From positions 68,634,001 through 68,698,000 of the forward strand of contig JANJGN010000014.1 in assembly GCA_026770705.1 (NCBI GenBank): DNA of 64,000 nucleotides, given 5' to 3'. Of the stretch, positions 115 through 54,100 are shown piece by piece. The DNA is from Isurus oxyrinchus (lineage: Eukaryota). The notes beneath the pieces are model-generated. The model was given only the letters and a program-made list of their open reading frames with translations. It made no database searches and was not told the DNA's origin. Position 1 is the stretch's first letter, and every line of letters starts with the position of its first letter. Position numbers and translations under genes: made by a program.

Positions 115-3100
115 GTAAGCTTTACTTCAAAGCTGGAATATTTATCGTAAAAAAGCAAAATTCAAGATCGTAGTGCAGTTTTGTTTAAAAAAAACCATAA
201 ATTATGATTTTTTAAAATTTTTTCAGACCTGTGAAATGAAAGCAGAAGGTACAAAACGTTTCTTGATCCTTCACAATGTCAAACTGGATCAAGCTGGTGA
301 AGTTGTCTTCAGGGTGCGCAATGCCACATCTATTGCTTATCTGAGAGTTAAAGGTAACTAATAATCCTTGAAGGAAATGTTCAGAGCAGTTTTCTTTATG
401 ATGAAAGAAGGTGAGAAATTTTAAAGAAAAGTTTGTTTTTTTAGTTTAGCTTGCACTAAAATGTAATGTTGCTTTCAGAAATTGAACTTGACTTTGAGGT
501 ACCACTAAAAGATGTGACTGTTCCCGAAAAGCATCAGGCACGATTTGAATGTGTGCTTAACAAGGAGGTTCCCAAAGTCCTGTGGTCAAAAGGCACTGAC
601 ATTCTTAAGGCTGGTGATAAGTATGATTTAGTTGTTGATGGAAAGAAGCACATTCTTGTTATCAATAAGTCAACCTTTGATGATGAAGGAGATTACACCG
701 CTGAAATTGTGGGAAAGAAAACAACTGCAAAACTGACTGTAACTGGTAAGCTTTTTTAGTTAATTACATTTCATGATTAAACCTTATACTGGTTTAATGT
801 GAATGAAAATAAAATATTGCAGATACTGGAAATCTGAAAAAGAAAATGCTGGAAAAACTCAGCAGTCTGGCAGCATCTGTGGAGAGAGAAACAGAGTTAA
901 TGTTTCGACTCCATATGACTCTTCTTCAGAGTTTAATGTGTTGGTAATATTTAATTAACTTCCATTTTGCATATTGTTTGGTAATGTGACAATACATTTG
1001 TTAAGTCCTATACAAATATTTTAGGGGTGTTGTTTATTGTATTGTCTATGGCTGATTTAGCTTTTGTTATTCTGAAGCATTGGGCAATTAAGAGTGTAAT
1101 TAAAGATGGAGATATCATCATTCAAAATATGCCATACACATTATATTAAAGCCTACGATTGATCTGGGTGTGGGGAGTTGCCTTACCCTAATGTCAGGCT
1201 GCATTTTGTAGATCAAGAACTTGCATTTATATCATGGCTTGCACCACCCTATGATGTCCCAAAGCTCAATGAAATATTTTTGAAGTATAACCCCTGTTGT
1301 AATGTAGGGAAACACATTAGCCAATTTTCACAGGCTAAAAAACAAATGTAGATTTCAGTTGAATTATTAATTACATGATTTTGAACTAGTAATGATTGGT
1401 CCATATATTACTTCATATTTCAGGTATGAGGTTGAAGTTTATTACACCACTAAAAGATCAGACAATCAAAGAAGGTAACACGGCGCATTTTGAAATTGAA
1501 TTATCACATGAAAATCTCCCAGTGGCTTGGTACCGGAATGAAAATAAAATTCACCCAGGCAGAACGGTTGTGATCTCCACTGATGGGAAGAAGCATGTAT
1601 TAGAAATTAAAGAAGCAACTCTTGATGATACGTGTCAGATACGAGCAGAAGTTGCTCAGCTATCCACAAAAGGTTACCTGAATGTCATCGGTAAGACTTG
1701 TTTGGAATTCTGTTGTGCAATGAAACTGACATTTTGTAGGTGGAATGTAATACTGACTGAGGGAGCAAAGAACGAGGCAGGGGGAAATTGATTCAAGTGG
1801 GAGGTTCCATGCCAGATCTCCGACATCGGGATCAAAGGCCGAAAATTATTCTGGCATGGGCGTGGGGGAGTGGGGAGGTACAAGACAGTAAAGCTGACAC
1901 CACACAGTGAGAACTTAATTTTACTGGTTTAGCATATCCTTTTAACTCATTAACATGGAACCTTTTGCGACTAAAAAGTAGCTTTGTAATTAAGCGTGAT
2001 GCACACGAGATCACAGGCCCTCAGTTTCCTGGCTGTCTAAATCTGATGGTGAGCTGGCAAGTCAGTCTGTGAGGGCAAGTTGAGCCACTTGGACCTGCCT
2101 GTCACAACTCAGCCATTTTCTTCTGAGAGGGGAGAGTAGTCTGTGATTCATCGCGGGGAAGGGCACAGTCACAGTGTGGTGGTTGAGGGTCATTGATGGA
2201 AGGTCAGAGGCCATTGCAGAGAAGTTGAAGGTCATTGCAGGAAGTTCAAGGATCCTTCTGGAGGGACGAGGGCCATTGTAGTGAGGTAAAAGGACATCTC
2301 GGGGAGGGAGAAGGATCACTATGGGAGGACAAGGACTATCTCGGGGAGGACTTGGGCAGATTAACTTGGCTGCAGGAGCTTGGTGACTGTAAAAGAGGCA
2401 TTTCCAACAGGTGCCAGGTGTTTCCTAAAGGCCAGGGACCCAGTGGAGGACATACTCTTGCCAGAATCTTGACATTTGTGGAGCTTTTGGAGCTACCATG
2501 CTCTTCTCCACCCAGTGTTCCTGGAGCCCAAGGTGGAGGAGGAGCACAGAAGGAGTCTGGAACTGGGTCCAGAGGCACAAATGGCAGGAGGTCATTGTAA
2601 AGGGGCTCAGTCTGTGGCTGGATCAAACCCTGAGGACGGTCAAGAGGAAATCCAACCGGAACCAGTCAAACGAAGATCAGTGCCACATGTCAGAGTACAC
2701 AGATCTTGCCTCAACTACCTTCAAATGTTAGAGAGACAATGTCGTCAAAAGTTGTGGATGCCTTAGGTGGCTATCAGGGATTTGTGTTCTGCTGCAGGAT
2801 GATCCGTGGCACCTGGGATTCAGAGGGCATCCAATACTTGTGGCTTTGAAGGTCATGGCAGCATTAAACTTCAACACCAGTGGCTCCTTCCGGGTATTGC
2901 CCAGGCAGCTGCTCATGGAGTGACAAATTCCCTGTACAAGAGGGCCAGAGAGTTTGTGCAATACAATACTGACCCAAAGAGCCAAGCCAAAAATTTGTGG
3001 GCTTTAGAGCCTTTTCAGGCTTCCCACGAGTGCAGGGTGTTATACAATGTGGCAGTTAAGGCTCCCTGGGACCAGCCTGTGGTATTTATCAACAGAAGGG

Positions 3101-6100
3101 GTTCCACTCCATTAATTTGCAATTGGTGTGGGACCGCAGGAGACATATCCTTCTGGTGAGTTCTGGGTTCCTTGGGTGTTCCCATTCCATACCACTCCCA
3201 AGTGCCACAGCTCTTCAAGACCCTTGCATGCCTACACAGATGGATCCTGGGAGACATTGCACGCAAGATCTGGCTGATGACATAGGTGCAGCACCCTCAA
3301 AATCCAGCCAAGGAGTGTTATAATGAATGCCGTGGATCAACAAGGGAAATGATTGTTAAAAATTAGGTTCCACTGCCTGGACCATTCTGGCAGGGCCCAC
3401 AATATATGCCTCAGTGTGTCTCTTGGACTACCATCACCTGTTGTGCATTGCACAACCTTGCGTGGCAAAGGGAGGAGGCTTTGCTGACTATTGAACTGGA
3501 GGAGCCACACTCCTCATCTGTTGAGTAAGATGGGGAGGAGAGAGCAGAGCAGGCAGGTCAGCAGATTGAGGCTCCACATCAGATGCAAAAGCAGTGGAAA
3601 GATGCGCAAGAGAAGCCTGTGAAGCCTGTGTTCACACCAGATTCCAGCCAGCAAAATGCCTTTAACAAGCCCTCTGCCTTACATCCATGGGACCTCTATA
3701 TCTTCTCCCGAGAGCAACTCACCATTGACCATCAAGAAGCCACTCCATTCTAGCCACTCCAACCATGAAGAGGTCAATACTCCACCTTCATCCATACAGA
3801 CTTGTAACTTATTCTGCAGGTGTTCACACAGCTAATAGGGAGATGACATTAACACCATCCAACACATCCACAGCTGAGGTGAAGACAATATGATTGTGTT
3901 CATTCTTACTGGCCTCTCTGCTCCTTTCTGATGGGCTGCCCTCTTGAACTGCTGCAGTTCATGTGATGTTGGTACACCCACAGTTTGCTAGGGAGGGAGT
4001 TCCAGGATTTTGACCCAGCGACAGTGAAGGAACAGTGATATATTTCCAAGTCAGGATGGTGTGTGGCTTGGATGGGAACTTGAAGTGATGTTGTTCCCAT
4101 GCACCTGCTGCCCTTGTCCTTCTAGATAGTAGTGGTTGTGGATTTGGAAATTGCTGCCTCAGGAGCCTTGGTGAGTTGCTGCAATGCATCTTGTAGACAG
4201 TACACATTGCTGCTACTGTGCGTTGGTGGTGGAAGGAATGAACATTTGTGGAAGGGGTGTCAGTCAAGCAGGCTGCTTTGTCCTGGATGGTATCAAACTT
4301 CTTGAGTGTTGCTGAAGCTGCACTCATCCAGGCAAGTGGAGAGTATTCCACACTCCTCACTTGTGTGTAGTAGATGATGGACAGGCTTTACAGGAGTCAG
4401 GAGGTGGGTTACTTGCCGCTGGATTCCTAGCTTGCTGAGGGGCTCTTGCTTGGGTACAGATGCTTCTTCTGTTACCATGGTTACTGGGGTCTGTAGGATC
4501 ACTGGCTGAAGAGAGGCTGCTCACCCTCTGAGAGCCTTGAGAGGAACCATCAGAAGAGGGAGCCAGGTGCACGTCTTCCCTCTCTGTGCTTGGCAGCATC
4601 CACCTGTCCAATGGAGGAGGAGAGACCCCTCGAGGGATGTCCAGGCACCTCATCCCCCTCTTGCTTGGCCACTGCTGCCTAGAACTCATGGCCAGTGCAT
4701 TGGTATGCAGGTCTGAGCGCATATCCAGCTGCCACTGAATGGTCTGCTGAATTTGACTGTCCATAATGGTCACCAGCCTCTCCATAGAGGAAGCTATGCC
4801 CTCACATACCCATGGCAGAATGCATGGCCTGGATAGACTCCTCATCGTCCACGCAATCCATACAATACCTCTGAAAATTCTGTTAGATGTTCCCCTGTTT
4901 GCCTCTACATCACCAGAAAGTTTCTGGTGGCTGTGACCAGAGGCCCATCATCAGCTTGGTGCTCCGACTGGGCCTGGCTTCCAACAATCTTCTGATTGTT
5001 AGGTCCCTCAGCTGTCACAGCCTCCATCAGCTGCTCTGGCATGTCTGTGATGTGCTCACTAATTCTAAATGGCGATCGCATACTCATCAAGGTGAACGTA
5101 TCTGCACTAGTGGAGGGTGTGAGGGAAAGATGCACTCCCCCTGAAGCTTCAATGCCATCCTCCTCAGAAGTGCAGGGTCGTGGACGATAGAGCAGGCTGT
5201 CCCTCCAGAACACAAAGACCTCCACGGGGAACACAAAGAATTAGGTTTACATTATTTATAATCCCTCTTCTCACCCCTCTCTGATGCATGTCTCCTTTCT
5301 GCCCAATGGTGGACACCAACTGGAGATCTCCTCACTCTCTTCTGTGCACTCCTGCTTCGCTGTCCTCAATTTCCTGGCTGCCCTGCTCTTTGGCCAGGTC
5401 CACTGCCGTCTCCTCTGCTGATGTGAGTGATCTAACGTTAGGCACTCCTCCACCCACCGTTGCCTGTTCTTTGCTGTGTGTGCCATTTTCTCCTTCGAAC
5501 AGAATGGGAGACTGAGTCTCTGCTCCATGAACATCTGACGCCCTTATCAGCATGCATTTCTCTGTCAGATAATGGGGCCTGCTGGTTGTCTACACTTTCA
5601 CCCTCATAGCACTTGTGCAACAATGGAAGCATGAGCGTGAAATTTCGCACCCATATGCATCCAAGCCTCAGCTTACATCTGTTGCTGAGCCTTACACTTC
5701 TTTTGCCTACCTGCCCACTCTCTTCCCCTCACTAAGACACATTGTATGTTGCCCTCATGAGAACCAGGTAGCTCTAAACATTCCACCCTGGCAGCACAGA
5801 GGAGGTAGTTGACCCTCTTGCTACATTGGACACATGTGGACCCCATGCTGCTAGCCTCCGTTGCACTCTCTATCCAGACGTACTTGGTCAAGCTGGAGGG
5901 TCTCCTGATGCCACTGCTGGGGAAAAGCACCTCCCACCATTTCTTGGCAGCCAAGAGGAGAACTGCAAGGGGGCATCGCTGAACTGTAGAGCCATCCTTT
6001 GTCTGTCTGAGCCTTGTGCCAGTTGGACACAGATCAGGACAAATGCTGATGAGGCTGGGAGCCTGGAGAATGAATTCGAGGTGCTGCTAAAGAAGAGAAG

Positions 6101-9100
6101 GTTGAGGCTAGAGATACCTTCAGGGCTGGGATTCCTCACTGCCTCTGCAATACTGAAGCTGATGCCTTGTAAACACTGCCATTTAAAAATGGTGCCTGGA
6201 CGTTAGACCCCTTCATTTACAGCGCGTTCAGAGACTTCCTGCTGGCTCCCACCGCAGAATTAGCTGGGCCCTGCACCTCCATTGCTTTTATTAGCCAAAA
6301 ACCACCACAAAAATCATGATTGTCCAGCCACTCCTGCCACTAACGACAATGCCACCCACCTCGAGGTCTGCCGCTTGGTCCTGCTCCAGGACAACTAAAT
6401 TCTGCCCTACATGTTGTGTACAATTCTATCCATGACAGAACCGATAAAGAAACGGTTTTTAAAAAACAGAGGGCATTAGGTGTTCGTGATGATTCATTTC
6501 TTGAAAAGTAACATTCTGTGAGAGACACTCTTTCTTCAGGCAGAACATTAGCTGTTTGTCTCTCATCCACAGAGGCTGATCCTTATTTCATTGTGAAACT
6601 GCAAAATTATACTGCTGTCGAAAAAGATGAAGTCACTCTTGAATGTGAAGTCAGCAAGGACGTGCCAGTAAAATGGCTGAAGGATGGCAAGGACCTTACA
6701 GTGTCAAAGAAAGTTTCAGTTAAAGCTGTTGATAAATGCCGTATTTTGACGATCAAAAAGGTTGACAATAAAGACAAGGGTGAATATGAATGTGATTGTG
6801 GAACCGACAAGACAAAAGCCTCTTTGAATATTGAAGGTACAAATGTTATGAATGAGTACAAGTAGATTCTTCAAAAATTATAAAGTAACGTTCTTTCAAT
6901 ATGTGCAGTTTAAACACCCATTTTTATTACTGTTTACAGCTCGCATCATCAAGATAACGCATCCATTGCATGGTGTAGAAATCTTTGAAGGTGAAACTGC
7001 GCATTTTGAAGTGGAGATCTCAGAAACTGATGTGCATCCTCAATGGAAGCTGAAGGGTGAAACTTTGTTAATGTCGCCTGTAAGTTGTTTTCTTAATTTA
7101 GTTCAAAATTAAACATTCCCACCTCTATGTTGGAATTATTCGGTAGTAAATCATTTTACCCCAGAACTGTTAATTTATTAAAACCGTCATTATTAAATTG
7201 CCTTCCTAATAAATGTTCAGTGGACCCCAAGAGCCTGTATAGTTGTTCTTGAAGAAAGTTCAGGGTAAATTTTCTACAAATGAACTTCATCCTAATATAT
7301 CTCGGGTTATTTTGTGTTGGCAGCGATGTGAGATTATCGAGGATGGCAAGAAACACATTCTGACCCTCTACAACTGCAAACTAAGTGATTCTGGAGAAGT
7401 TTCATTCCAGGCTGCTAATGCTAAGTGTGCAGCTAACCTGAAAGTCAAAGGTAATTTTGAATTCATTTGGAAGAACTTATTATTTTTTTCTGGAATTTTA
7501 ATCATTACAGTTCAGGCTAGTAATTTAGTGCCTTAGTTCCATATTCTGTTCCTATAAGTGGTATGTGTGATTTCCATATGTAACATATGCATTTTAAAAT
7601 ATATATGTATTTGCCAAATGGATTATTAATCTAATTTTTTTTACTTCCTACTCTCCCATTCAGAAATTCCACTCACCTTCATTGTACCGCTTAATGATGT
7701 GAAAGTATATGAGAAAGATGAAGCAAAGTTTGAATGTGAAGTGTCCAGAGAGCCCAAGAATTTCCGTTGGCTAAAAGGAACTGAGGAGATTAAACCTAGT
7801 GCTAAATTTGAAATTTTAGCAGAAGGGACAAAACATATGTTGGCAATTAAACAAGCTGCATTTGATGATGAGGCAAAATATATGTTTGAAGCAGAGGACA
7901 AGAGGACAAGTGGCAAACTGATTATCCAAGGCAAGCAACAGGAGCTAAACAGCAATATATATATTCCTTAGTAGATAACCTGTTCTCTTATTAACGCAGC
8001 TTGAATTTGATTTTAAAAATTCCTTTATTCATAGGCATACGACTTGAATTCACCAAACCTCTTGAAGACCAGACTGTGAAAGAGCGTGAAACTGCAGAAT
8101 TTGTAGCTGAACTTTCTCATGACAATATACCGGTTGTCTGGTACAAAAATGACAAACGCCTACATCCAAGTAGGACAGTGACTATGAAAGACGAGGGTAA
8201 AATCCATTCCATCATATTCAAAGACGTGACCATTGATGATACTTCCCTTATCAAAGTTGAAGCTATGGCTAAAAGTTCGGAGGCCAAACTAACTGTACTT
8301 GGTAAATATATATGGAAATACATGAATTATATTTGCTAACTAAGCTTTGAAACATTGCGCTCATTGCTGGACATTTTTTCTAATTTGCCTCATTTTCTGA
8401 TTTTCTTAGAGGGTGATCCATATTTTATCCGCAAACTGCAGGATTATACAGCTGTAGAAAAAGATGAAGTTATCTTCCAGTGTGAGGTCAGTAAAGCTGA
8501 TGCTCCAGTTAAATGGTTTAAGGATGGAAAAGAATTGATTCCTTCAAAGAACATGCAGATTAAAACAGATGGGAAGAAGCGCATATTGGTTATTAAACGG
8601 GCTCTGAAGAATGATCAGGGACAATATTCATGTGACTGTGGCTCTGACAATACATCAGCCAAACTAAACATCGAGGGTAAGAATAACTAAATGTCGTCTT
8701 ATCGATAGCATTTAGAAACATCCAAAATCCTGTGGTCCTTTGTACTTGTTTATTGTGGTAACTCAACTTGTATTTTTTTGTAAATTAGATTAATTTGTCT
8801 TAAATTATCAGTCATGTGCTGCTGCTGGACAATAACATCTTACATTATTTTACTTCAGAGCGTGATATTAAGATATTACGTCCACTGTACAGTGTTGAAG
8901 TCACAGAAACAGAAGCTGCTCGTTTTGAGACTGAAATTTCTGAAGAAGATGTACATGGCAATTGGAAGCTGAAGGGGGAGAATTTGCATCCATCCCCTGT
9001 GAGTATTAACATTAGAGAAGTGCTCAAGTTTTTCTTGGCTTCTTTCTTTCTTTCCTTCTTTTTGTCTACCTTCCTTAAAAGTTTTACATCTTTTTTCTTA

Positions 9101-12100: not shown

Positions 12101-15100
12101 ATAAATTTATTCTGCTCTCAATTATCTGAACTTTGTTATCCAAAAAAAAGGCTTGGCTAAGTTTTAGTTTAAACAAAGCGTGAAAAATTTAGAAAATTAA
12201 ACAATGTACAGAACCGTAGTATAATTTCTTAGTATTTTGCAACAGTTGAGATGTATTTTTAGATGTCTAATATACCCCCACTTGTTAAAAGCTGGAAAGG
12301 ATAGTTTGTATCAAAATGTGATTGTTGCTTGAACTGGGCAACTTGTCTAATTAATTGCCTTGTTATCTTTTTACTATTTTAAACATGACTTGAATAATCA
12401 TTTGGTGAATTTGCTGATGGCCTAAAACTTTTATTTTGGATCAGGTTGTTACTCGTACTGAAGGCAGAGTGCACACTTTCACCCTCAGAGATGTCCAGTT
12501 GGAGGAGGCTGGTCAAGTCAAACTCACTGCTAAAGACTTTGCAACATCTGCTAAGCTTATCGTTAAAGGTGCGTGATACAATATGCTGATTAAATATTGG
12601 ATTTTTTTTCCAAAACAATATATTTGGCAATGTATTTTATGATTAATGTGTTGAATTTTCATTTAAATCTTTTACAGAACCACCAGTTGAATTCACTAAA
12701 CCTCTGGAGGACCAGATAGTTGAAGAAGAAGCCACTACTATATTGGAATGTGAGGTGTCCAGAGAGAATGCCAAAGTTATATGGCTTAAGGATGAAAAAG
12801 AAATTCATAAAACCCAGAAATATGATATGATTGTTGATGGAAGAGTTAGAAAGCTTATTATCCATGACTGCAAACCTGAAGATGCCCAAACATATACTTG
12901 TGATGCCAAAGACTTCAAGACTTCCTGTTTCCTCACAGTGGAACGTAAGTAAAAGAATGTCCAGTGTTCATAACTGAAGCATTTTGTTCCCATGTTGATG
13001 AAAATATATATGATGCTATTTCTCTGCCAGTAAGATTTTGTTTCTTTCACAGCTCTTCATGTTGAATTTACAAAGCCTCTCACTGATCTTGAGGTGAAAG
13101 AAAAAGAAATGGCCAAATTTGTATGTGAAGTTTCACGTGAAAATGCAAAGGTTTGCTTTTTGCTTAAATCACTGTATCAGTTTTTATTTTTTCACTTTTC
13201 CTTTATGACAATTAAAACCCAATCGTTTTAAAGTGATGAATTAGACAATATATCTGACCTGCTGTGAGACCCACATGTTTTCACTTCTTGTTCACTTGCA
13301 GTGTAAGGTTACAATAAATGAGCCTTCATGGTGAAATAAATTTCCTTGTACATTTTCCTGTACAATGGTCCCTCTCTCCCTTTAGGGTCTGAAAATTAAT
13401 CAATTTCCAGAATTTCCATTTTTCTTGGGGCTGCAGATACTCCCAAGGGGCTGAATTTTGCCCTTGATGGGTGGGCGGGCCCAACCGGCTCGGTGGCAGA
13501 TGGACAGGCAGCCGATCCCCACTGCCGAAACAGGCCCCGCCGCCATTTTGAGTGGGCGAGCCAATTAAGGGCCGCCCAAAGGGAAGCGCTATGCACTTAC
13601 TGGAGGGGGCGGGATTCCCTAACTGTCAGAGTGCACATCTCCCTGAGACCAAGTGCTGCCTCAGGGAGAGCACTGACAGTGGTTGAAACTTTAAAAATAG
13701 AAAAATAAAAAAATTAACATGTCCCCCTCATGTAACATGTTAATAAGTATCACAAAAACTTTATTAAACTTTTTTAAAACAGACATGAAACCTCATCCCG
13801 CCGGTGGATGAGGTTTCATGTTTTTTCAGAAGCTTGCTGGGGCTCCTGGCCTGCCCGCCAGTCTTAAGGTTGGACGGGCAGGGCCTTTAATTAGTTTAAC
13901 TACCCTGTCAATAGCCTCAATTGGCCATTGACAGGTCGGCGGGCGGACAGCTGATCACACTACTTCCCCCCCCCCCCCCCCCGCCTTCCTGAATATTTAA
14001 ATGGGGTGGGATGTTCCCCTCGACGTCATCCCGCGTCATTTTCGCATCAGCGAGCAGGCCCCGCCCCCAGCTTGCCAAAGGAAAAATTTTGCCCAAGGTC
14101 TCTAATCCTCATTTTCTCTACACATGCAGATGGTCAGTGCCAAGTTATACATGCGTGACCTCATCACAGCCCTGGGACCCTCCCAGACCCAAACCTTCTT
14201 GCCAGATGCAATCAACAAGCCCCCAGCCCAAGTCTTCTTTGCTAATTCCATCTCATATACTAACCCCATACTACACTTTCTGCCTCAGTGCCAGTATCCC
14301 CAATGCCAGTGGGTATGTTATGCTGTGTTTCCACTACCAATAACCTAGGATTTTCAGGGCTTCTCCAAGAATGCAGGATATCATAGATAAAAACAAAACA
14401 AAACTGCGGATGCTGGAAATCCAAAACAAAAACAGAATTACCTGGAAAAACTCAGCAGGTCTGGCAGCATCGGCGGAGAAGAAAAGAGTTGACGTTTCGA
14501 GTCCTCATGACCCTTCGACAGAACTTGATGAAAACAGGATATCATAGTCTTGTTTCTGTGACCAGGAGGCACTCAGACTCAAATGTCCCTTGAAACGCTG
14601 TCCATCAGTAACTAGAAGGCCCTGAAGTTTGTGACTTATAGCACAACATCAGATTTCTTAGGACAGCAGCTATATTCTGTTTCCTGCTTTGTTTTTTGGC
14701 TAGGAAATGTAACTGCACTTGCCCAGTGTTAGGATAGAGAAATTCAGGAAACTGCTTGTTTATTTTTAGATAGCACTGTTCTTTACTTGTTTACACTGCC
14801 CTAACGTTCCACAATGCTCCTCCAAATCTAATTGTAACTCAGTTAGCAGAAACCTTCCCTTTTAAGCATGTTCTGCTAGCAGAATTGCATGATTTTTTTC
14901 CCAGGAGTTTAACTAGTCAATCAACATTTACCAATATTAGAATTTCTATTAGAACCTATCACATCTGTAAAATTAGGTGCTCCCTTTATTCCAAGCATTT
15001 ATAATGAAATAATAAGAAGGAATCGGTTCCCTAATTCCTCTCAGAGAAGGAAACCTGAAATTCCTATCAGTCCCTATTCCACTCTCACAACATGTTGTTG

Positions 15101-18100
15101 ACTTTTAATACACTCTGAAGTGACGTTACAAATCCTTTAATTGTAAAATAATCACAACAAAACAGTGCAATAAGAGAAATATAAAAAATATTTGCCTAGA
15201 CCCAGTTAGCAGGTCAGGCCAAAACTCAGGCAACCCAGAACAGTCAAACCTGAAAAAAAACATTTTGCCAACCTCTGGGAACTAATGCCCAAGTTAGAAG
15301 AATGTCGGTAGTTGTATCAAGAAACTGCTGGACATTGCTGAGCTCAAAGAATCATACCTTTCAGTCAGTATTGCAGACTGCTGCATCACCATTCCTAGGT
15401 ATGTCTTATCACACTTATTGAAGAGACCTACCAGAATAGAGGCTAATCGGGAACAGAAGCATAGTTGTGATGTTGCTGGACTGGTAATACAGAGGCTTGG
15501 ACTGATGTTCCAGAGCCATGGGGCTGGATTTCCCCAAGAGGGACAGAAAGCATGCATCAACCTAGGCAATGAAAACATTCTTCTCAATAACATCTGGAAA
15601 TTTATACAAAAATTAGGAGAGCTATTCCACAGACTAGCCTAGCAACAGCCTGACATAGTCATGCTCAGAGACTCATATCTTGCAGCCAATGTCCGAGACT
15701 CCTCCAACACCATCTGTGTTTATGTCCTGTCCCACCTGCAGACCCATTAGAGGTGATGGAACAGTGGCATACAATCAGTAGGGAGAAGGTCTGAGAGTCC
15801 TCATCATGGACTCCAGACTGGATAACATCAGGTCCAACATGGACAAGGAAACCTCCTGCTAATTACCACCTTTTGCCCTCCCTCAGCTGAAGAATCAGTA
15901 CTCCTCCATGTTGAACATCAATTGAAGAAGCGTTGAGGGTGGGAAGGGCACAGAATATAGCTAAGGATGTAACCTCGCCCTTGTCCCATTTCTTTTAAAT
16001 TTTATAGCAGCTTATAATTTCTTCAGGGCATGGCAAAACAATTTAGAACCAAAGGGTTACATAGAATTAAATAGTGCTGAATTTTACACTCCAAGATTGG
16101 AAGCATTTGCCACTTTGCGGTGTGTATTACGGGGTGTGATGACCTTGGGCGCGTTTACAACGTCAACACGCTTGTTTCTGATAAAATGGCAGGTGGGCGG
16201 GTCAAAAAATTAGAAACCTGCCCGCGTGATTTAAATATCAATTTAAAAAACAATTCAGCTAATTAGCTACCTATCTCTCTTCAATAATACTATCAGAAGG
16301 CAAAAACCAGGGTGAGATTTACGACTGGTGGGGAATCCGTTTTTTTAAGGGCAGGCTTGTTTTGGCGGGTTTTAAAACTGCAGCTGAGACCAGAGTCTCA
16401 GCTTTGCAGTTCAAACTTTATTAACTGCAGGGACTGATCATCTGAGTGGACAGAGGAACCTTTTGGATATTTTTCATGAGGAGAACTCGCCTCCAATTCA
16501 GTGAGCTCTTTTGATGGATTATTTCCTGTCCATTACCCAGGGGTGAGGGGTGAAAAGTATCTGAGACAGATGGGGATTGTGGCCTCAGTTGGAGACACAA
16601 CTTCCATGGCAATATTTAATAAATATACAGCTCCTCAATCCCAAAAGATGGGAGACTTGCAGAATTTTAAAACTTCTGCCACCTATGAAATTTGACATGG
16701 TTGGCAGAAATTAGCTAAAATTTAAAATAAAAACAAAATGCTGGGAAATACTCAGAAGGCCTGGTAGCATCTATGGAGAGAGAAACAGAGTTGACGTTTT
16801 GAGTCCATATGACTTCTTCAGAGCTGAAGAGAGGTAGAAATATAATGGGTTTTATACTGTTGAAAAGAGGGGATGAAGCAGTTGGAGAAATATGGAAGCT
16901 CAGGGATAGGTGGGAGCTCAGGAGAGATTTGACAAAGATGTCATGGACACAAGACAATAAGAATGGTAATGGTGGTGTTAAAGACTAAGATAGGTGCTAA
17001 TAGTGACATAGAGATCAGATAGCAAAATGTTTTAATAGCAGAACAAGGGTCAGCACTCTCTGAAAGCAAAACATAAGAACAAGTTACAGATTGACCTTGT
17101 TGGGGGTGGGGTGGGGGTTGGGAAAAAATATCAACATGGAGGACAAAGCTCATGGTCTGAATTTGTTGAACTCATTGTTGAGTGCTTAAGGTTGTAAAGT
17201 GCCTAATCGGAGGATGAGGTGCTGTTCCTCTAGATTGTTTTGGGGAACTGGAGGGATAGCACCTCATCTTCCATTTAGGTACTTTACAGCCTTCTGCACT
17301 TAACATTGAGTTCAAAAACTTCAGATCATGAACTCTGCCCTCCATTTTGATATCCTTTTCCCAACGCCTTCCCCCCACAGGGCTAGCCTGTAACTTGTTC
17401 TTATGTTTTGCTTTCAGGGAGCCAAGACCCTTGTTCTGCTATCAACACATTCTGCTGTCTGACCTTTATGTCACCATAAACACCTTCTTTAGTCTTTAAC
17501 ACTATCATTACCACTCCATTTGTCTTGTATCCATGACATCTTTGTCAAATCTCCCCTGAGCTCCCACCTATCCCTGACCTCTCTGCTGAAGTTAAGCATG
17601 CAGGTGCAGCAGGCGATAAAGAAGGCAAATGATATGTTGGCCTTCATAGCCAGAGGATTCAAGTACAGGAACAGGGATGTTTTGCTGCAATTGTGCAGGA
17701 CCTTGATGAGACCACACCTGGAATATTGTGTGCAGTTTTGGTCTCCTTATTTGAGGAAGGATGTACTTGCTATAGAGGAAGTGCAGCGAAGGTTTACCCG
17801 ACTGATTCCTGGGATGGCAAGACTGACATATGAGGAGAGATTGAGTCGGTTAGGATTATATTCACTGGAGTTCAGAAGAATGAGGGGGGATCTCATAGAA
17901 ACCTATAAAATTCTAACGGGACTAGACAGGGTAGATGCAGGAAGGATGTTCCCAATAGTGGGGTGTCCAGAACCAGGGGTCACAGTTTGAGGATACAGGG
18001 TAGACCATTTAGGACTGAGAAGAGCAGAAATTTCTTCACCCAGAGAGTGGTGAGCCTGTGGAATTCACTATCATAGAAAGTAGTTGAGGCCAAAACATTG

Positions 18101-21100
18101 TATGTTTTCAAGAAGAAGTTATATATAGCTCTTGGGGTGAAAGGGATCAAAGGATATGGGGAGAAAGCAGGAGCAGGCTATTGAGTTGGATGATCAGCCA
18201 TGATCATAATGAATAGCAGAGCAGACTCGAAGGGCCGAATGGTCTACTCCTGTTCCTTGTTTCTATGTTTCTATTTTGCTCCACCTGCTCTATCCCTCTC
18301 TTCAACTGTATAAAACCAATCACATTTCTACCTCTCTTCAGCTCTGAAGAAGAGTCATATGGATTTGAAATGTTAACTCGGTGTGTCTCTCCACAGATGC
18401 TGCCAGACCTGCTGAGTTTTTGCAGCATTTTCTGTTTTTATTTCATATTTCCAGCATCCACAATATCTTCCTTTTAGCTAAAATTTAAATTGACTTACCT
18501 GACCAGGCTAGAAGATGCACAGATCTTCAGTATGTTTAATAGATGCGCTCAAATAATTATCTGATAGGTCACCTGACACTGTCAAGTACCAGAGGCCCTT
18601 TAAAATGCTGGCCATTACCTTGTTCCAGGTACCTGCAGCTTCTGAGACTGACATGCCCTCTCCAGCACTCCTGGCGGAATGACGGCGTATAAGCTGCCTT
18701 TGCCTATAATTTGCAGCAATTAGCATATTATTGGGTGCATACAATGGTGGGCCCGGATGTCAGAATGCTACCATCAGAGGAACCCGCCGCCGGTGTACAA
18801 CCATATTATTTAGCACAGAAACACTCCTGTACCAGTGTTTATGCTCCATACAAACATCCTCCCATTCTATTTAGTTCATCTGATCCTCATCTCACCAGAT
18901 CATATCCATCTCTTCCTTTCTCCCTAGTAAACTTATCTGGTTTCTCTTTAACTGCATCTATGTTATTCAGATACCCCACTGCATACAGAAAAAATACATT
19001 CCCGCATACTGAAGTAGACAAGAAAGGCTCTTTGTGTTATCAGATATGACAAATATCCAGGTCAATGATTATATTCCACAGAATGCGCCCAAATATACCT
19101 GAAAAAATTGAGCACCCCCCCACATTCCTCTCTGTAAATGCAACACCCGTGCTTAATCAAAAGTTAACATGGTACTTGCTGTTATCTTACTAAGGAAATT
19201 CGAAGGATATAGGTAGTTCTGCTTACACCAGTGTCTCTTTCAGCATAAATAACTCAAAGCACCAGCACACTAGACTCCAACCTCCCATTATCAGATTTGC
19301 CAAACTCCCTTCTACCGAATTATCTATTCTAACGTATTTTGAAAACAGTATCTTAAATATTTTGAACAGGTTTCACATACTGTATTGAAAAAGATTTTTA
19401 AAATTATCCTGAGCAAGACATTATGGATTTTCTTTTATTTTAGGTTCATTGGTTTAAGGATGGTGTTGAAGTAAGAAAAGGCAAAAAGTATGGCATTGTT
19501 GCTAAAGGTGTGGAGAGAATGCTTATCATTCACAAAAGTAGCTTGGATGATGAAGCTGAATATGAATGTGATGCAAGGACAGCCAAAACATCTGGATTGC
19601 TTACAGTTTTAGGTAATCAAACTATGCATAATTTTATCTATCAGAAACACATTTAAGTTGTTATTGATCCATTTGTACTTATATATGATGCCATGTTTTG
19701 TAGAAGAGGATGCTGTCTTTACGAAGAACCTTGCCAATGTTGATGTTACTGAAGCAAATAGTATTAGACTAGTTTGTGAAGTTTCCAAACCAAATGCTGA
19801 CGTGAGATGGTATAGGGGAGATACAGAGTTGCCTGAAATTGGTCGATATGAACAACTTACAGATGGCAGAAAGCGAATTTTAATAATTCAGAATGCCAAC
19901 CTAGATGATGCTGGTGAATACAATTGCAGACTTCCAACTGCTCGGACTTCATGTGAACTGAAAGTTCATGGTATGTACTGTGGTCTATTCTGATATGAGT
20001 TTGTTTAGTACCTCCATGTCTTAATTTTACACTATATAATTTATCCTCTTAATTTTATTACAGAACTGGCAGCAGAGTTTATTTCTAGACCACAGAATCT
20101 GGAGGTAGTAGAAGGAGACAAAGCAGAGTTTGCCTGTTCAGTATCAAAAGACAACTATGAAGTGAAATGGTTTAAAGGTGACAAAGAGCTTAAAGCAGGT
20201 GATAAATATGAAATCATATCTGATGGCAAAAAACGAATGCTCATTGTCAAGGACTCCATACCAAATGATGAAGGAACTTATGCTGCCATGATTGGTACCT
20301 CAAAAGCACCAGCAGAACTGACAGTAATTGGTAGGTCATGTAAACTAAATTGCATGTCTACAAAAGGATTTACAGGAAATAGGAACATTGCATGTGCACA
20401 GTCAAATTACATTGAATATTGCTGAAAAGACAGACAAGTTGCTGAAGCTTTTTGTCTTGCATCCAGCAGGACAAATGCAATAAATGCCAAATTTCAAACA
20501 ATCGTTTGTCTTTCTTTTCAGCAATATTCAAGTATTATACTGCCAAACAACTGTATCAAATTATATTATTTTAATTAAATTATTAAAAAGAAAAATATAT
20601 AACTGGACATTTTAAATCCCGTCATCTTGCAAAAATGGGAGCAGTAATGGATGGGGATGGTGCACGTAGTGCTCTGTTCACATGCTCTACCATTTCTCCA
20701 GGCTTCCTGCTGGGTATCTGTGACACCTGTCTAAATCAGGCAGAAGCCACATTAGTCTAAATAAATCAGTGTACTATTTCCTATGGGGTCTGGTTAGCCC
20801 AACTGGCTAGATGACTAGAGTGTAGTTCAGCGCGGATTCGGTTCCCATTCCACCTGAGGTACAATTGGAACCTGCACCTCGCCCTACTCCTGAGAGCAGA
20901 AGGCAATGGCAAACCACCATTAACAAAATGTACCAAGAAAATGGCTCAGGATGAAGCATCAGCAGACAAGGAGCCAAGGACCTGCCTTTGGGCAGAGCAC
21001 ATGTCATGACAATTTCCTACATAGGACCCTGATGCCATTTTAACCGCCTGCTGACACAGCCATGGATGCTCCATTCAACTCTGTTCTGCAGTACAGCAGA

Positions 21101-27100: not shown

Positions 27101-30100
27101 TTTACATTCGATATAAACCACAGATATGAAACTAGTAGTTCAAAATTGTCATTTATGTTCATTAAAGTTACTAATTTAGACTGGAAATTTAGACTGTTGC
27201 CTCCCTGGACAAATGATTTTTGTAAGTTTAAAAAGTTCACAGCAATACTGAAGGAAACAAACAAGAATAGAGCAATTCAGATGTCAGATCCATTATTGCT
27301 ATGCCAGATATATGCAACTAAATATAGAGGTCAATCCTATGTCAGTAACTTACTGCATTGTAAGCATTCAGTGCAGATTTCAGTATTGTTATTCAAATTC
27401 ATATGCAGAATTTTCTGTTTTCTTTCTGAGTCCTTGTGTTACCTTTCCCCTGTCAAATCCTCTTCAAAGCTCGTTGGGAATATGTATTTCCCCAGCACTG
27501 CAAGGTCTATGCCCCTTTAAGTTTGTCTTGGAATTTCAGGGGTTCTTCATGCAGGCAGTCCTGAGCCTATACTTACTGTCATCGGAGGATCAAGTCAGCC
27601 ATGGAAATGATGCGGGTGTTACCAGCCCACTTACCTCATTTTCTTCTCCATCTGATGGAAAGGTGCCTGATAAAGCTGGCTTGGACTCCCCACTGAAATT
27701 AAAGGGATTCAGGCAGCAAAACATGTGAAACCAGGAAAAGTAAATGCTATTTGTCTTTTCCTGCTTCTCATTGGATTTTTGGCCTGGAACCCTTCTTATG
27801 GCTGTTCACCAATGGCTTCTCCAGGGACCAATGCTAGGTTTGCAACTATTTTGATATATTATTAAGCTACCTGGCAATCAATGGTTCTTCAACCTATTAT
27901 ACATAATCCAAGGAGGTAGAAAGTGGGATTTGGCTGTGTTTAAGGAAGAGTGGCAATATTTTTATGTGTTGAGCTTATTAACGTCACTGGATCATCATAT
28001 TCTGTGATTTCTAGGTTATTGAGCGAGTGCAAGATTTAGAATTTACTGTCCCTGACCTCTTCCACGGAAGAGACTACCTATTTAAAGTTTCAGCCTGTAA
28101 CAAATGTGGTCCAGGGGAACCTGCATATGTTGATGAACCTGTTAATGTATCTGCACCAGCAAGTAAGTATTTAATTTTGTTAATCGCTTACATTGAATCT
28201 TAGGATACTTCCTTTGTAAATAAAGCCAAATAGATCTGTTTGGTTTATTTTTAAATGTATGCAGCTCAGTTCTTCTAAATATTTCGTAGCGTTCCACTAC
28301 TTACATACTAAAATATATTGTATTGATAAATTAATAGGGAAACAAATAGTTTTTCAAGCCAAGATCTTTCCAGGAGTGATTTAGCAAAGAGTTTCATAGA
28401 TTGGCTCTAAGAACTAATATGTAATTTAAGCTGAGCATGTTTCCTTATCCACTCTCTTAATGTATTCCCACTGGGATCATCTGTGGATTTTCTCTGGTGG
28501 GCATCAGTTACAGTCCCTTTCCAGGACCACAGTAGGGAAAGTACCAGGGAGAAAACAGAGTTCCTCAGTGGAGGGAATTGAACTTCTTCGGAGTTCTTCT
28601 CTTCTTCCATTATGGACCCCCTTCCCTTCTTGTTTAGGTCTCAGTCACTGTTGAGGTCTACCACGAAGCCAGTCTTCTAATCCTCGAGGTACTTCTGTAC
28701 TTTTTACAGTCTCGTGCTATGCAAGTAATCCTGCCATGAACTGCCATAGTCTGACTTGTGAAATTAGTTTTGGGTTTTGGTGGTGATGATGGATAGAACA
28801 GAAGTCATGCCCCATTAGAACACTGACACTGGAAGAACAACTCCACCCTTTGGCTGATATTTTCCAGCCCCACCCGCCGCTGGGATCTTCTGGGCCAGCG
28901 AAAAGCCAATGAACCTTTGGCTGGCCTACCCCATCCCGCGTGACAGGTCCCGCCTTTATCTCCCGATTGTGACTCGCATCCTTTAATCCTTCCAATCCCT
29001 ATATATTTCACGAAATCAGAGGATTGAATGTCATCTGCATTTAACCATTTGGGCTGCATTAGCATCAGATTTAACTGATTTGGACCCAAAGAAGGAAATT
29101 TGTCTTAAGTATGTTTAATTAATTTTTTGAAATTTTTGTACTAAAGACTTTAATTTGTAATTCTGTATTTCACAGCTGTTCCAGATCCACCAGAAAATGT
29201 CAGATGGTGGAATCCATCTGCCAAAGGAATCTTCCTTACATGGGAGCCACCAAAATATGATGGAGGCTCAAAAATTAAAGGATATATAGTAGAAAAGTGT
29301 CAGCGTGGTGCTGAAAAGTGGGAGGCATGTGGAGACTCAGTTAATGAATTGAAGTAAGTTTATATACCTAATTTTCTAATGTTTTCTGTGTTTTAAATCG
29401 TACACAGTAATTGCTAAAACTTGTTATTTATGTCAAATAGGATGGAAGTAACCAATCTCAATGAAGGGGAATGGTATTCATACCGTGTTAAAGCTTTGAA
29501 CAGACAAGGTGCCAGCAGACCAAGTAGACCCACAGATGATGTACAAGCAATTGATCCAAAAGGTATTGATCTAAATATAATTTTCCAAAGATGTATTACT
29601 TTACCAAGCTTAAGCTTTATTAATATATTTCAATCCTATTTAAAAATGTAGACAGGTTTATTTCATAAATTTGCGCATTGTGTTAAACATTGTCACTGTT
29701 GCAAGTTCAATTGAACTCTGTAAAAATAGAATATATTATTAGTTATTCAGAACATACAATACAGCTGAGATATATTGATAAACTTAGTGAGTTAATGCAA
29801 CTAGCACAGGGTCTTAGTGGCAATTCTAATTTCCCCATTAATTCTTTTTAATAATTGGGAACTTGAAAGAGGTACAAATCAGGTATGCAGTTTTCAGTAT
29901 AAAATAAAAATACTGCAGATGCTGGAAATCTGAATCAAAAACAGAAAATGAGAAACAGAGAATCTGAAGGAGGGTCATACGGATTTGAAACATTGACTTT
30001 ACTTTTCTCTCTCCACAGATGCTGTCAAACCTGCTGAGTTTTTCCAACATTTTCTGTTTTTGATGCAGTTTTCAATGCCAGATAGTCTGTCAAATGTGGC

Positions 30101-48100: not shown

Positions 48101-51100
48101 CACCCCACTTTCTCCCACACATGCATCTGTAGTCACCATCCCCCTTGGCCTAGAGCACAAGAGGGAGAATGAGCAGAGAAAACAAAAAGCTGTTCACAGA
48201 TGGAGGAGGTGACGGTTTCTCAGCAGGAAGCCTTATCCATTTAGGAGCATTTATTTTACCTTTACCTAAGACAGGAATGGTATATGCAATCAACTCTGTT
48301 TTGCAAAGGAGATGTTTATAGAAATCTACCATCTTTTGTAAACAGACCTGCAATCTCAGAACTGAGCATAACATTGCGGCCAGTAGCTGTTTATGCCAGG
48401 CAGGGGAGTTCATTATCTCCTTTCTGACCATAGAGAAGCAGGTGGAGAATGCAAATGGCTTTGGCAGGATAGCAGATGTAAGGCACCATTGACTGCACTC
48501 ACATGGTTTTGTGGGTGACATATCTAAATGTTGAGGTGTACTGCAATCTCAAAGGTCACCACTTGCTGAATGTGCAGTTGACCATACTCAGCACGTCATG
48601 CGGGTGGATGCTTACTTTCTTGGCAGCAGTCAGGATGCATTTTTTTTGTAGCAGTGAACTGCTCTCAGCATTTGAACCGCCACGTTAAACCCGCAGGTTG
48701 AAACGGACTATCCGTCTAAAAGCTAGTTCATGACTCTTTGCATAACCCAAGTACATGTGATCTGTCTGTAGTGAGAACCATGCATGAAACATCATAAAGC
48801 AGACCATTGACCAATAAAGTGCTCAACAAACATGTTCGATGTCTGGACCACACTTGAGGAGCCCAATAGTACTTGTCAGAGCATGTATCTCAATTTGCAG
48901 TGGTCTGCTTTGTCCTGCGTAACCTCACATCACGAGGGCACAACCCTTGCCACCAGGGAAACAATGAGCAGCTGAAGTGCAGGAGGAAGGGAGCAGGCAA
49001 CGAACAAATTATCTTTCTGCATGGGCTCTCTGTGATCACCTCATTTTACCACAGTTCCACTGAACATAACCTCAGATCCCCATTCTGCAGCAATCACACA
49101 CCTTACCATCCCTCTATCACTGACTAGCACTGTGTCCTCTTGGCCACAAGGTTGAAATAAAAGCCACCACAAAACAACTGTTACATGCCGACTTGATCCA
49201 ATAAAACACCTGAATGCTATACAATACTCAACTAATCCTTCTGCTGGGCTTTCATGGCAATAAGCTGTGATTTCATGCCCTCAGTCTAAGCTTCCACTGC
49301 AGCACACAGATGTTTGGTGATTTCTGCCTGTACTGCAATGGAAGCTGAGACATTGGTCATCGAACACCACCTCATGGTTAGGTTTACATGTGGTCATGGA
49401 GTTGGCCACCACTTGCACAATGGAAAGGATGGGCTCCACGCTTTGTGCAAAGCTCTGTGCCTGGTTGAAATTGGATTCCTCCATGCTCCTTGTCAATACA
49501 CCAACATTTCTACAAATATGCTTATCATTTTTTTTTCTGTTGGTCACCTTATTTAAGTTCTCATCTCTTCTGCAGCAGAACCAGTTTACTACTTCACTGA
49601 ATTACCTGGAAAAACTCAGCAGGTCTGGCAGCATCGGCAGAGAAGAAAAGAGTTGACATTTTGAGTCCTTATGACCCTTCGACAGAACTTGAGTTCGAGT
49701 CCAAGAAAGAGTTGAAATATAAGCTCGTTTAAGGTGTGTGGGGGGGGCGGAGAGAGAGAGAGAAGTGGGGGGGGGGGTGGTGTGGTTGTATGGACAAACA
49801 AGCAGTGATAGAAGCAGATCATCAAAAGATGTCAACAACAATAATACAAAAGAACACATTGGTGTTAAAGTTGGTGATATTATCTAAACGAATGTGCTAA
49901 TTAAGAATGGATGGTAGGGCACTCAAGGTATAGCTCTAGTGGGGTTGGGGAGAGCATAAAAGATTTGAAGATATTTAAAAATAATGGAAATAGGTGGGAA
50001 AAGAAAAATTATATAATTTATTGGGAAACAAAGGAAGGGGGAAACAGAAGGGGGGTGGGGATGGGGGAGGGAACTCACAACCTAAAGTTGTTGAATTCAA
50101 TATTCAGTCCGGAAGGCTGTAAAGTGCCTAGTCGGAAGATGAGGTGTTGTTCCTCCAGTTTGCGTTGGGCTTCACTGGAACAATGCAGCAAGCCAAGGAC
50201 AGACATGTGGGCAAGAGAGCAGGGTGGAGTGTTAAAATGGCAAGCGACAGGGAGGTTTGGGTCATTCTTGCGGACAGACCGCAGGTGTTCTGCAAAGCGG
50301 TCGCCCAGTTTACGTTTGGTCTCTCCAATGTAGAGGAGACCACATTGGGAGCAACGAATGCAGTAGACTAAGTTGGGGGAAATGCAAGTGAAATGCTGCT
50401 TCACTTGAAAGGAGTGTTTAGGCCCTTGGACAGTGAGGAGAGAGGAAGTAAAGGGGCAGGTATTGCATCTTTTGCGTGGGCATGGGGTGGTGCCATAGGA
50501 GGGGGTTGAGGAGTAGGGGGTGATGGAGGAGTGGACCAGGGTGTCCCGGAGGGAGCGATCCCTATGGAATGCCGATAGGGGGGTGAAGGGAAGATGTGTT
50601 TGGTGGTGGCATCATGCTGGAGTTGGTGGAAATGGTGGAGGATGATCCTTTGAATGTGGAGGCTAGTGGGGTGATAAGTGAGGACAAGGGGGACCCTATC
50701 ATGTTTCTTGGAGGGTGGAGAAGGCGTGAGGGCGGATGAGCGGGAGATGGGCCGGACACGGTTGAGGGCAAACTGGAGGAACAACACCTCATCTTCCGAC
50801 TAGGCACTTTACAGCCTTCCGAACTGAATATTGAATTCAACAACTTTAGGTCTTGAGCTCCCTCCCCCATCCCCACCCCCTTTCTGTTTCCCCCTTCCTT
50901 TTTTTTCCAATAAATTATATAGATTTTTCTTTTCCCACCTATTTCCATTATTTTTAAATATTTTTAAATCTTTTATGCTCTCCCCACCCCCACTAGAGCT
51001 ATACCTTGAGTGCCCTACCATCCATTCTTAATTAGCACATTCGTTTAGATAATATCATCAACTTTAACACCTATGTGTTCTTTTGTTCTATTGTTGTTGA

Positions 51101-54100
51101 CATCTTTTGATGATCTGCTTCTATCACTGCTTGTTTGTCCCTACAACCACACCACCCCTCCGCTTCTCTCTCTCTCTCCGCCCCCCCCACACACCTTAAA
51201 CCAGCTTATATTTCAACTCTTTCTCGGACTCGAACTCAAGTTCTGTCGAAGGGTCATGAGGACTCGAAATGTCAACTCTTTTCTTCTCTGCCAATGCTGC
51301 CAGACCTGCTGAGTTTTTCCAGGTAATTCTGTTCTTGTTTTGGATTTCCAGCATTCGCTGTTTTTTTGTTTTTATTACTACTTCAGTGGTCTGGGGAACC
51401 ACGTGATCTTTTCTCCTGCTCTGTCTGCAGTCCACTCATGCCTGTTGACTCACTCCTTGCATATCTTGCCTCAATGCTACCCTCTAAATTTCAACAGTGT
51501 CAGTATCCGAGTGGAGGACCATGGGTCTAGATTGAATGATGGTGTTTCTTCCTCCTTAATCTCCTGTTCATCCTGGCCTCAACCTTCCACATCACTGCCT
51601 GGACAGGCAGCAGTTCTTGGGTTTTAAGGCACAAGGGCAAGTTTTGGGTGAGGAAAGGGGGAAAGCAAGAGGTGCATAATTACACCATCATGGATCAAAA
51701 AACTGACTGTGTATGAAAGCTGGAATATACGGCGTGTGGCTTGCAGCAGCACTAAATGTGTGAGGGTGAGGTGACACTATGAATGTGAGGTAAGAGTTAT
51801 GGTTAATAGAGATTATTGGAAGGCAAGTGAAAAGGATGTGGTAAATGAGGTGTAGTTAGTAGAATGTGGCATGTGAAGATGCATTTACTGATCATAATCC
51901 TGGCACTGCATCCAGATCCTTATGGCTGAACTGCTGACATTGACTGCAATGGCTACCTACTCCCATTGCCTTCTCAGAATGTTTCTGGAGGGCTTCCTGG
52001 CCCCTGAAAAAAGAAAACCCCTCTCTTCCTGCACAAAGGCCTCAAGAGCAGCATCTCAGCATACTCTCTCACCTGTGGTCCATTTTTGCAGCTTTATCCT
52101 GGTTTTTCACTAACCAGTTTCAACCTTTGCTGTAGTCAGGATGGAGCTCAGCTTTAACTGGTGCAACCTGAGATTAAATAGTTCAGGCTAGCTTTAAGTG
52201 GTACTAGCCTTGCCTGAACTTGGGCCACCTGCTGCGATGTGCAGCCACTCAGCAGCACATTTAGTGCTGGAATGCAAACCATGATCATTATAATTAGTAG
52301 CAGCATGAAGTTTGCATGCGGTCTGCATTACGGAATGTGTTAGGGTCATTCCGCATTGCGATCCCCACACCCAATTTCAGGGACAATCCAATTTAGTCCC
52401 CCTTTTCTTGAGTCATCAGTGACTTAAAATTGATATTGAAACAGTGACAAGAGAGAGGAGAAGTTTATTTACTCAGAAGGTTATTGGAAAGTGGAATGCT
52501 AAAGAGAATGGCAGAGAGATTGCAATTTACTTCAATGGAGAGTGTAATTGGACAGGGCATAAAATAGCACAAACCCACCCCATTCCCACTGGGCAGATTA
52601 GATTAAAATCAGGGTTCATATTTTGACAGATCTCTTCAGCAGTGGTTAAAGCTCATCAACATGGGTATGCTCTCATCCACCCACCTCATTCTGAATTAGT
52701 TTTAGTTTGGTGTGGGCTGTACAGTTTATGAAGGATGTCCAGTTCACGCAGCGAGTGGTTAAGGTCTGGATTGCACTACTTGAGTGTAGTGGAGGCAGGT
52801 TCAACTGAAGCATTCAAGGGGGAATTAAACTGTTAAGGAAGAATGTTCAGGGTTATGGGGGAAGGCGGGAGAATGGCACTAAGTGAATTGCTCATTCGAA
52901 GAGCTGATGCAGAAATGATGGGCCGAGTGGCCTCCTTCTGCACTGTAATAGTTCTGTGACTTGTGAGGTAGTTTTCATTCTTTAAATCCTAGATGTCTTT
53001 CACAAACTATGATCCCTCCCAGTTATCGTCTCTAACTTGTTGGGTTTGCATTTTTGACTGGATTAGGTATTTTCTTGTTTGAAGTTGATTTAGATCAACA
53101 TTGGGTCAAAATGAATGGAACCATTTTGCAGGCCTGGTTGAAGATCACATGTGGACTCATCCAGTTTGGCATCATGAGAAAAATAATTGCAGACAAGCTT
53201 AACATGGAACAAATCAATCATCAATAGTCATAGTTTTTCTTAAGAAAAGAGGATTGAACAGATTTTGTAACATTTGATATTTTACTGTTTTGTTTAGGAT
53301 AAAGATCATAATCTCCCAGCTGATGCCCAGGTAATAATATGATTAATGATTATTTTACAGTATCATGTTGGAAATTTTGGAATGTAGAAATGGAATTTGC
53401 ATTTACTTGCTGATTAATTATTCATCTTTTTGTCTTTTGTAGGTTGAAAGTATCAAAACTAAGACAACTGTGGTTATTCCAGAATGTAATGGAAGTCACT
53501 CAGGTCGATATAGTATTACTGCTAAGAACAAGGCTGGACAAAAGACATTAAATGTCAGAGTAAATGTTCTTGGTATGTAATTGTTTTATTGGATTGTATT
53601 TGAAAGAGAATGAATTGTAGTTTAATGTGATTATTAAATTAATTATTTTTTATTTGTTACAGATATGCCTGGACCACCAAAAGATCTCAAAGTAAGTGAT
53701 ATTACAAGGAGTACCTGCAAACTTTCATGGAAACCCCCAGACAATGATGGTGGAGATCGAATTAAATGCTACGTTGTGGAGAAAAAGACTGTAGAAGGAA
53801 AAGCTTGGGTAAAAGCTAACGCTGACTGTGCAGGCACATCATTTATTGTGCCTGATCTTATTGAAGGGCAGGAGTACTTCTTCCGTGTCCGGGCAGAAAA
53901 TCGCTTTGGCATTGGCGCACCAGTAGAAACCATTCAGAGAACCAGGGCTAGAGATCCAATTTGTAAGTTTATAGTTAGAAAAACATATACTGGTCTAGTT
54001 CAAAAATCAGTATAATTCATTTTAGTGTTTATGCTTTGTTAGCATTTTTTTGATGACTACTTATATATTTCAGACCCTCCTGAGCCTCCAACAAAACTCA

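Follow-up and report, generated by a model that had tools for sequence, protein, structure and literature searches.

Endonuclease-positive Penelope-like elements (PLEs) of the Neptune/Nematis type are known to have just one open reading frame (ORF), in which a reverse transcriptase (RT) is followed by a C-terminal GIY-YIG endonuclease, and a CX2-5CxxC zinc linker between the two belongs to their definition (PMC8557442). The available passages of their descriptions (Craig et al. 2021, PMC8557442; Arkhipova et al. 2013, PMC3846280) also report partial tandems, strong 5′ truncation, an adjacent inverted 5′-truncated copy, a tail of 30–40 bp at one end and a target-site duplication (TSD). Known minimal type I hammerhead ribozymes have an extra nucleotide before stem II, a G10.1-C11.1 pair, a short stem I and a loopless palindromic ACGU, and their copies are mostly single, dispersed and tied to truncated PLEs. 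All of these features recur in the shark Isurus oxyrinchus, of which we analysed 64,000 nt of a titin-like gene (contig JANJGN010000014.1, positions 68,634,001–68,698,000, or C14:68.63–68.70 Mb; here called the window). The shark element differs from the Neptune/Nematis-type elements in its copy number (>100,000) and in a sharp 5′-end mode at stem I, which those passages do not mention, and from known minimal hammerheads in a U at A6 (young family) and in 58,078 identical cores, against about 4,000–9,000 motifs for coelacanth and Xenopus. Element, minimal hammerhead and insertion shapes all belong to known kinds; beyond the published descriptions that could be found go only the quantified 5′-end mode and a weaker echo of it at the upstream hammerhead. 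A literature search, made mostly outside subscription journals, found no published 5′-end mode at a hammerhead edge and no shark PLE hammerheads, and supplements (PMC4209133; bioRxiv 10.64898/2026.07.22.740005, with one chondrichthyan) may list motifs.

Two other systems are informative here. The Poseidon element PAc of Anolis, in the accessible passages of Frangieh et al. (2024, PMC11167929), likewise has its tail defined by two internal RT start sites, extends both target strands and has its hammerhead upstream of the start sites; cleavage is dispensable for its insertion in vitro, and the role of Penelope hammerheads is described as open (PMC7761336, in part). The shark element differs from PAc in the place of its start sites, which are not within the ORF but in T-rich non-coding sequence ahead of its start, in its clade, and in being known from sequence alone. 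Metazoan retrozymes outside the long terminal repeat (LTR) class share with it a type I hammerhead, descent from pseudo-LTRs (pLTRs) and a short non-coding unit. According to excerpts of the reports on them (PMC7761336; bioRxiv 10.64898/2026.07.22.740005), they consist of head-to-tail repeats that are cut into circles, once per ribozyme; the shark stumps, by contrast, are solo or head-to-head, and their start lies upstream of the core instead of at the cut. The shark family combines 58,078 cores of identical sequence with intact tandem parents and a base-exact 5′-end mode, and so provides an inexpensive way to locate the start of the template RNA and to ask whether the element needs the fold rather than the cut.

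The parent element

At C1:460–470 kb (locus L061) three hammerheads 3.35 kb apart lie around an open 926-aa ORF. Its protein contains RVT_1 at residues 415–579 (E 7e-8) and GIY-YIG at residues 829–863; the latter scores 19.9 bits in the whole protein, below the cut-off of 22.6, and 23.0 bits, above it, in the ORF piece of the window, which is 98% identical to the L061 protein (167/171 aa). The linker CPRKRCNTC, of the CX2-5CxxC type between RT and endonuclease, is present in both, and by this motif the predicted protein places the element among the endonuclease-positive PLEs, Neptune type. By the same sequence comparison the window insertions are only 3′ ends of such an element, and the link to Penelope proposed in a first-pass annotation of the window is borne out, its pieces matching an autonomous element with both RT and GIY-YIG. 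Partial tandems (pLTRs), seen as same-strand cores 3.28–3.40 kb apart, occur at C1:462–469 kb, 701–704 kb and 4.292–4.295 Mb. Near-identical full-length tandem arrays occupy C1:460000–469999 and C1:12.156–12.167 Mb, with one unit holding the open 926-aa frame, and these arrays are likely to be recent source copies. Exact matches over the 4.98-Gb genome number 58,078 for the 36-nt core of the copy at 14521, 114,464 for a 34-mer of the tail and 3,691 for a 36-mer of the ORF start, with none for the reversed-pattern controls.

5′ ends at the edge of stem I

Element coordinates take the hammerhead-core C as zero (C3 = 0); on this scale cleavage is predicted between +30 and +31, and stem I (AGUU/AACU) opens with the base at −4. 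Our census took in all 104 tail-anchored arms in C1:0–2.98 Mb (one chromosome end), which represent 72 insertion events. Among arms at risk, 26/84 end at 0 to −12, a hazard of 0.024 per nt, compared with 0.003 per nt at −13 to −25 (2/58) and 0.009 at +1 to +12 (10/94). Counted by event, with C1:1504880 (an alternative subfamily) left out, 21/62 end at 0 to −12 against 9/41 over the next 88 nt (p 3e-16); one of the 21 (C1:1505069) belongs to the alternative subfamily and should be removed. The same place stands out in 86 core-anchored arms drawn from the first 100 listed cores (C1:2497496 and 4349475 left out), where 33 end at −1 to −10 with the mode at −4. None of the 47 long arms in that sample has a mismatch at −1 to −8, and mutation is therefore not the cause of the pile-up. 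Genome-wide, nested exact counts fall from 58,078 (0) to 51,410 (−4), 40,139 (−7) and 35,014 (−10), most steeply between −4 and −7, and for 40% of the exact cores the match breaks off in the first 10 nt upstream. In 50 listed head-to-head junctions, counted by hand, the end of the longer arm falls at −4 in 18 cases, −5 in nine and −12 or beyond in three, and in older families with a canonical core about 10/30 copies, read by eye, end at most 9 nt from the core. The first-pass annotation had suspected from two copies that 5′ ends recur at the ribozyme edge, and had named uniformly spread truncation points as the finding that would speak against this; the ends pile up at −4/−5. No end lies at the cleavage site (+31) among the 104 arms, the nearest being at +27 and +37.

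Copies anchored at the ORF start (90 of 100 listed places, 93 arms) allow the two hammerheads of a unit to be compared. Six of 64 stop at the upstream hammerhead (−3, −3, −4, −5, −5 and −7), a smaller peak at the same place, against 25/79 at the terminal one (Fisher p 0.002).

At the other end, arms have two alternative 3′ end sites, 32–37 nt apart. The census holds 25 head-to-head pairs with both anchors, and in 24 of them exactly one arm has the 30–40-nt tail; genome-wide, 6,493 head-to-head core junctions lie within 30 nt. A one-sided tail and inverted arms have been described for PLEs (passages of PMC3846280 and PMC8557442), and by analogy the mirror pairs fit what was shown for the anole element, in which RT starts at two internal sites and both strands are extended (PMC11167929, in part). 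In the pairs L010, L070 and L141 rare variants are common to both arms, and both arms of such a pair therefore come from one source element.

Origin of the short insertions

We think it probable that the short insertions are one-off run-off cDNAs, 3′ pieces of the Neptune-type PLE whose synthesis ran as far as an RNA 5′ end located at stem I. Priming by the element's enzyme would occur internally, some 95 or 135 nt past the hammerhead core, and the RT would then copy back until it reached this 5′ end where stem I opens (−4/−5). If the available passages on the anole element (PMC11167929) are a guide, both nicked target strands would prime, one per start site, and so give mirror pairs, and the stumps, without the downstream RNA needed for binding, would move no further and be dead ends. 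The −4 end would be a putative RNA end, either a transcription start or the edge of RNA protected by a bound protein, and ribozyme cleavage would play no part in stump formation. Were only priming sites followed by ORF-start RNA usable, as in PAc, the ordinary pLTR-ORF-pLTR transcript could yield nothing but the short product, leaving read-through RNA as the source of long copies; local protection by a bound protein would give the same asymmetry between the hammerheads. Older families read YYAGTTC at −4, which we take to be an initiator-like motif.

A number of observations weigh against run-off copying. The young family has a mismatch in the initiator-like motif (CAAGTTC). If every template began at −4, more stops at the upstream hammerhead would be expected than the 6/64 seen beside 25/79; the ORF-anchored copies rule out that simple form, and the model needs an extra assumption, namely usable priming sites only before ORF-start RNA or local protection. 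There is no clear extra G (a copied cap) before −4 in the solo stumps listed, and a shoulder of ends (17/101) lies inside the motif at +1 to +25. The bases in question also resemble a 3′ splice site, with 81% pyrimidine at −25 to −6 and YAG in 15/17 long older copies; in Drosophila virilis Penelope an intron ends at helix I (accessible part of PMC4209133), and transcription starts 46 nt before that intron (PMC2377424). The census, moreover, comes from one chromosome end, and the RNA data are contigs only, which cannot show RNA ends.

Some further sources of the ends were considered and set aside. A fixed copying distance from the priming site agrees with tailed arms ending inside the motif more often (13/21 against 5/22), but there is no cluster 35–40 nt downstream. 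Templates made by cleavage would give ends at +31, where none of the 104 census arms ends. An upstream pseudo-site (GAAAUC before AAGUU) acting as a second cleavage site is missing from a 13,409-copy variant, and ends reach −8. For a 5′-untranslated-region intron spanning both priming sites (CCAG/GT ... AAG/, slashes marking the splice points), the joint is absent from contigs of four presumed-RNA runs, where rare forms are dropped and absence is no proof, and the GT is missing in many older copies.

The likeness to a splice site has another possible meaning for these same Penelope stumps: the −4 pile-up could be an RT roadblock on unspliced RNA, with splicing factors bound at a 3′ splice site whose end coincides with the edge of the hammerhead. 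A polypyrimidine tract and YAG lie directly before stem I in long older copies, the D. virilis intron ends at the corresponding helix, the commonest form at the ORF stop is a donor-like GTGAG, present in 74 of the matched contexts, and the would-be intron is retained in copies. We nevertheless hold this unlikely, as a roadblock should act equally at both hammerheads, where the rates are 25/79 and 6/64, and the pile-up is strong in the young family despite its weaker AAG; in 23 of 24 short arms nothing from the element is attached upstream, so that spliced templates are not seen. Less probable again is an origin of the pile-up at DNA joining, in which the near-palindrome AAGTT/AACTT at −5 to −1 would favour annealing of cDNA ends and no special RNA end would be involved. 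Most short arms do belong to head-to-head pairs, many of the 50 listed junctions use the AAGTT/AACTT microhomology, and palindromes at inverted junctions are described in the available part of Arkhipova et al. (2013, PMC3846280). Solo stumps whose 5′ end adjoins a TSD stop at the same place, however (−2, −4, −4 and −10), the same bias is found in older families with TCAGCT or TTAGTT, and the steep drop past −9 is not accounted for by microhomology alone.

We similarly find it very doubtful that the short units form an independently spreading non-autonomous family, retrozyme-like or resembling a short interspersed nuclear element (SINE), transcribed from a promoter inside the unit and mobilised in trans by the Penelope enzyme, as the first-pass annotation had entertained. 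Such a family would have the defined 5′ end, own TSDs and thousands of copies that are seen, and the observed surplus of stops at the terminal hammerhead relative to the upstream one is what additional short templates would produce; an internal promoter is known from D. virilis Penelope (PMC2377424), and retrozymes derive from pLTRs (bioRxiv 10.64898/2026.07.22.740005, in part). Yet 24 short arms have no private alleles except one change in two insertions, and their alleles (17A, 42C, 65A) recur among 67 ORF-bearing copies. Junction sequences vary from copy to copy, with 5′ ends ranging from −1 to −10 and variable filler, no end lies at the cleavage site, as noted above, and a same-strand neighbour within 1 kb exists for one of 100 listed tail matches and none of 100 listed core matches. 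The young core carries A6U, and the anole enzyme needs RNA downstream of its priming sites, which the stumps lack (PMC11167929, in part). Short arms are about as young as ORF-bearing copies (1.3 versus 1.05–1.2 substitutions per 92 nt). A fixed 5′ form, TTCATCAAG, the only recurrent one, which appeared to be a SINE master in 18 of the first 30 BLAST loci, reflects query bias, as it makes up 344 of the 58,078 cores genome-wide and has varied flanks.

No head-to-tail repeats occur in the window. Elsewhere, hammerheads rarely form direct head-to-tail dimers; those at L081 (C1:3479523–3479883) and L101 are spaced by about 270 and 135 nt and are possible seeds of retrozyme-type repeats.

Window insertions and their hammerhead motifs

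The features of the window are as follows (C3 is the core C defined above).

802..930, minus strand: insertion 1, solo stump of an older sister family; decayed hammerhead (C3 929) and tail; 5′ end 1 nt before the core; 10-bp TSD 792–801 / 931–940
14387..14534, minus strand: insertion 2, solo stump of the young family; hammerhead 14525–14487 (C3 14521; CUGUCGA, intact stems, ACGU) and tail; 5′ end at −8 plus 5-nt filler; 13-bp TSD 14374–14386 / 14535–14547
16727..17233, minus strand: insertion 3, untailed arm, older family; ORF end, 3′ region and hammerhead (C3 16821) with G12A and a 2-nt deletion
17248..18473, plus strand: insertion 3, tailed arm; hammerhead C3 18344; split by an unrelated ~690-bp insertion at about 17581–18268; 16-bp TSD 16711–16726 / 18474–18489
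29897..29950, minus strand: insertion 4, inverted tail-only arm
29963..30062, plus strand: insertion 4, untailed arm; decayed hammerhead (C3 29964, A9G); filler between the arms; 12-bp TSD 29885–29896 / 30063–30074
49597..50769, minus strand: insertion 5, long untailed arm, young family; ORF 3′ end, 3′ region and hammerhead (C3 49685, G12A)
50075..50611, minus strand: insertion 5, C-terminal ORF piece with the zinc linker and GIY-YIG endonuclease matched above to the intact element at C1:460000–469999
50768..51374, plus strand: insertion 5, tailed arm; hammerhead C3 51243; 11-bp TSD 49586–49596 / 51375–51385
57279..58034, plus strand: titin-like exon frame, used for host gene and orientation

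The seven hammerhead-like motifs align as one homologous block and stand where the first-pass annotation had put them; BLAST with the full unit and two window copies gave no eighth in the window. Its five insertions are upheld as well, each with an exact TSD of its own, where a match of at least 10 bp arose in 10/1,986 random window pairs, and so is the titin-like host, read on the plus strand from one tested exon frame (best PDB match titin, E 1e-130). Other claims needed amending. Insertions consisting of little more than tail and ribozyme number two of the five (the solo stumps) and not three, 29897–30062 being a head-to-head pair, and the 5′ end said to lie within about 10 nt of the ribozyme edge is right for 802–930 and is corrected to −8 plus filler for 14387–14534. 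The type I layout holds insofar as the motifs are homologous and hammerhead-like, but GAAA and ACGU occur together in only one, and the pattern given as CUGnnGA masks the U at A6 in three. Insertions 3, 4 and 5 are inverted, with the tail on one arm and a TSD, the known Penelope layout.

None of the seven motifs is a fully canonical hammerhead. GAAA is found in 5/7, ACGU in 2/7 and both in 1/7 (14521). The three young-family copies (14521 and both arms of insertion 5) read CUGUCGA, in which U replaces the conserved A6, and the four older ones derive from CUGA(A/U)GA and have decayed stems or core (G12A, A9G, a G.G mismatch). Core changes generally lower hammerhead activity, with natural exceptions, and the available passages of PMC3088659 hold no A6U case. 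An Rfam scan of the window (E<=5) gave no hammerhead and six weak matches, none a ribozyme; the weak microRNA matches at 17193–17288 are the junction of the inverted arms of insertion 3. Older sister families with the canonical core (CUGANGA ... GAAA ... UH) have 8,472 exact descriptor matches genome-wide. In 19 distinct aligned sequences stem II is 100% and stem I 89.5% paired, the descriptor having fixed part of the stems. Compensatory base pairs number zero in these closely related rows, where only a one-sided A-U/G-U change occurs and the result is no better than shuffles; the stems are kept without compensatory change, which says little given that relatedness. On folding, stem II forms and the hammerhead is not the minimum (−7.3 vs −5.9 kcal/mol), and the ACGU duplex has −3.1.

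One older subfamily (L265, L269, L271, L280, L285 and L286; 6/19 rows) has a C at −2 that breaks a stem I pair uncompensated, yet it is widespread. In the young family, the 30 nt upstream of the hammerhead (L061:2180–2210; window 51213–51242) resemble scrambled hammerhead pieces and stand where older families have their pyrimidine tract, as though the element had absorbed a patch from a former junction.

The copies are probably harmless for titin, because each of the three that lie on the transcribed strand is damaged, with no same-strand partner close by. The unrelated ~690-bp repeat inside insertion 3 (17581–18268) has no Pfam match and may be the 3′ end of a long interspersed nuclear element (LINE), which it resembles. 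A decayed LINE-type RT fragment (RVT_1, E 7e-22) lies at 46506–47777 on the minus strand, in the same long titin intron as insertion 5, and an inverted repeat unrelated to Penelope ends, 56 nt long, 96% complementary and with its halves 170 nt apart, lies at 10671–10726 and 10897–10952.

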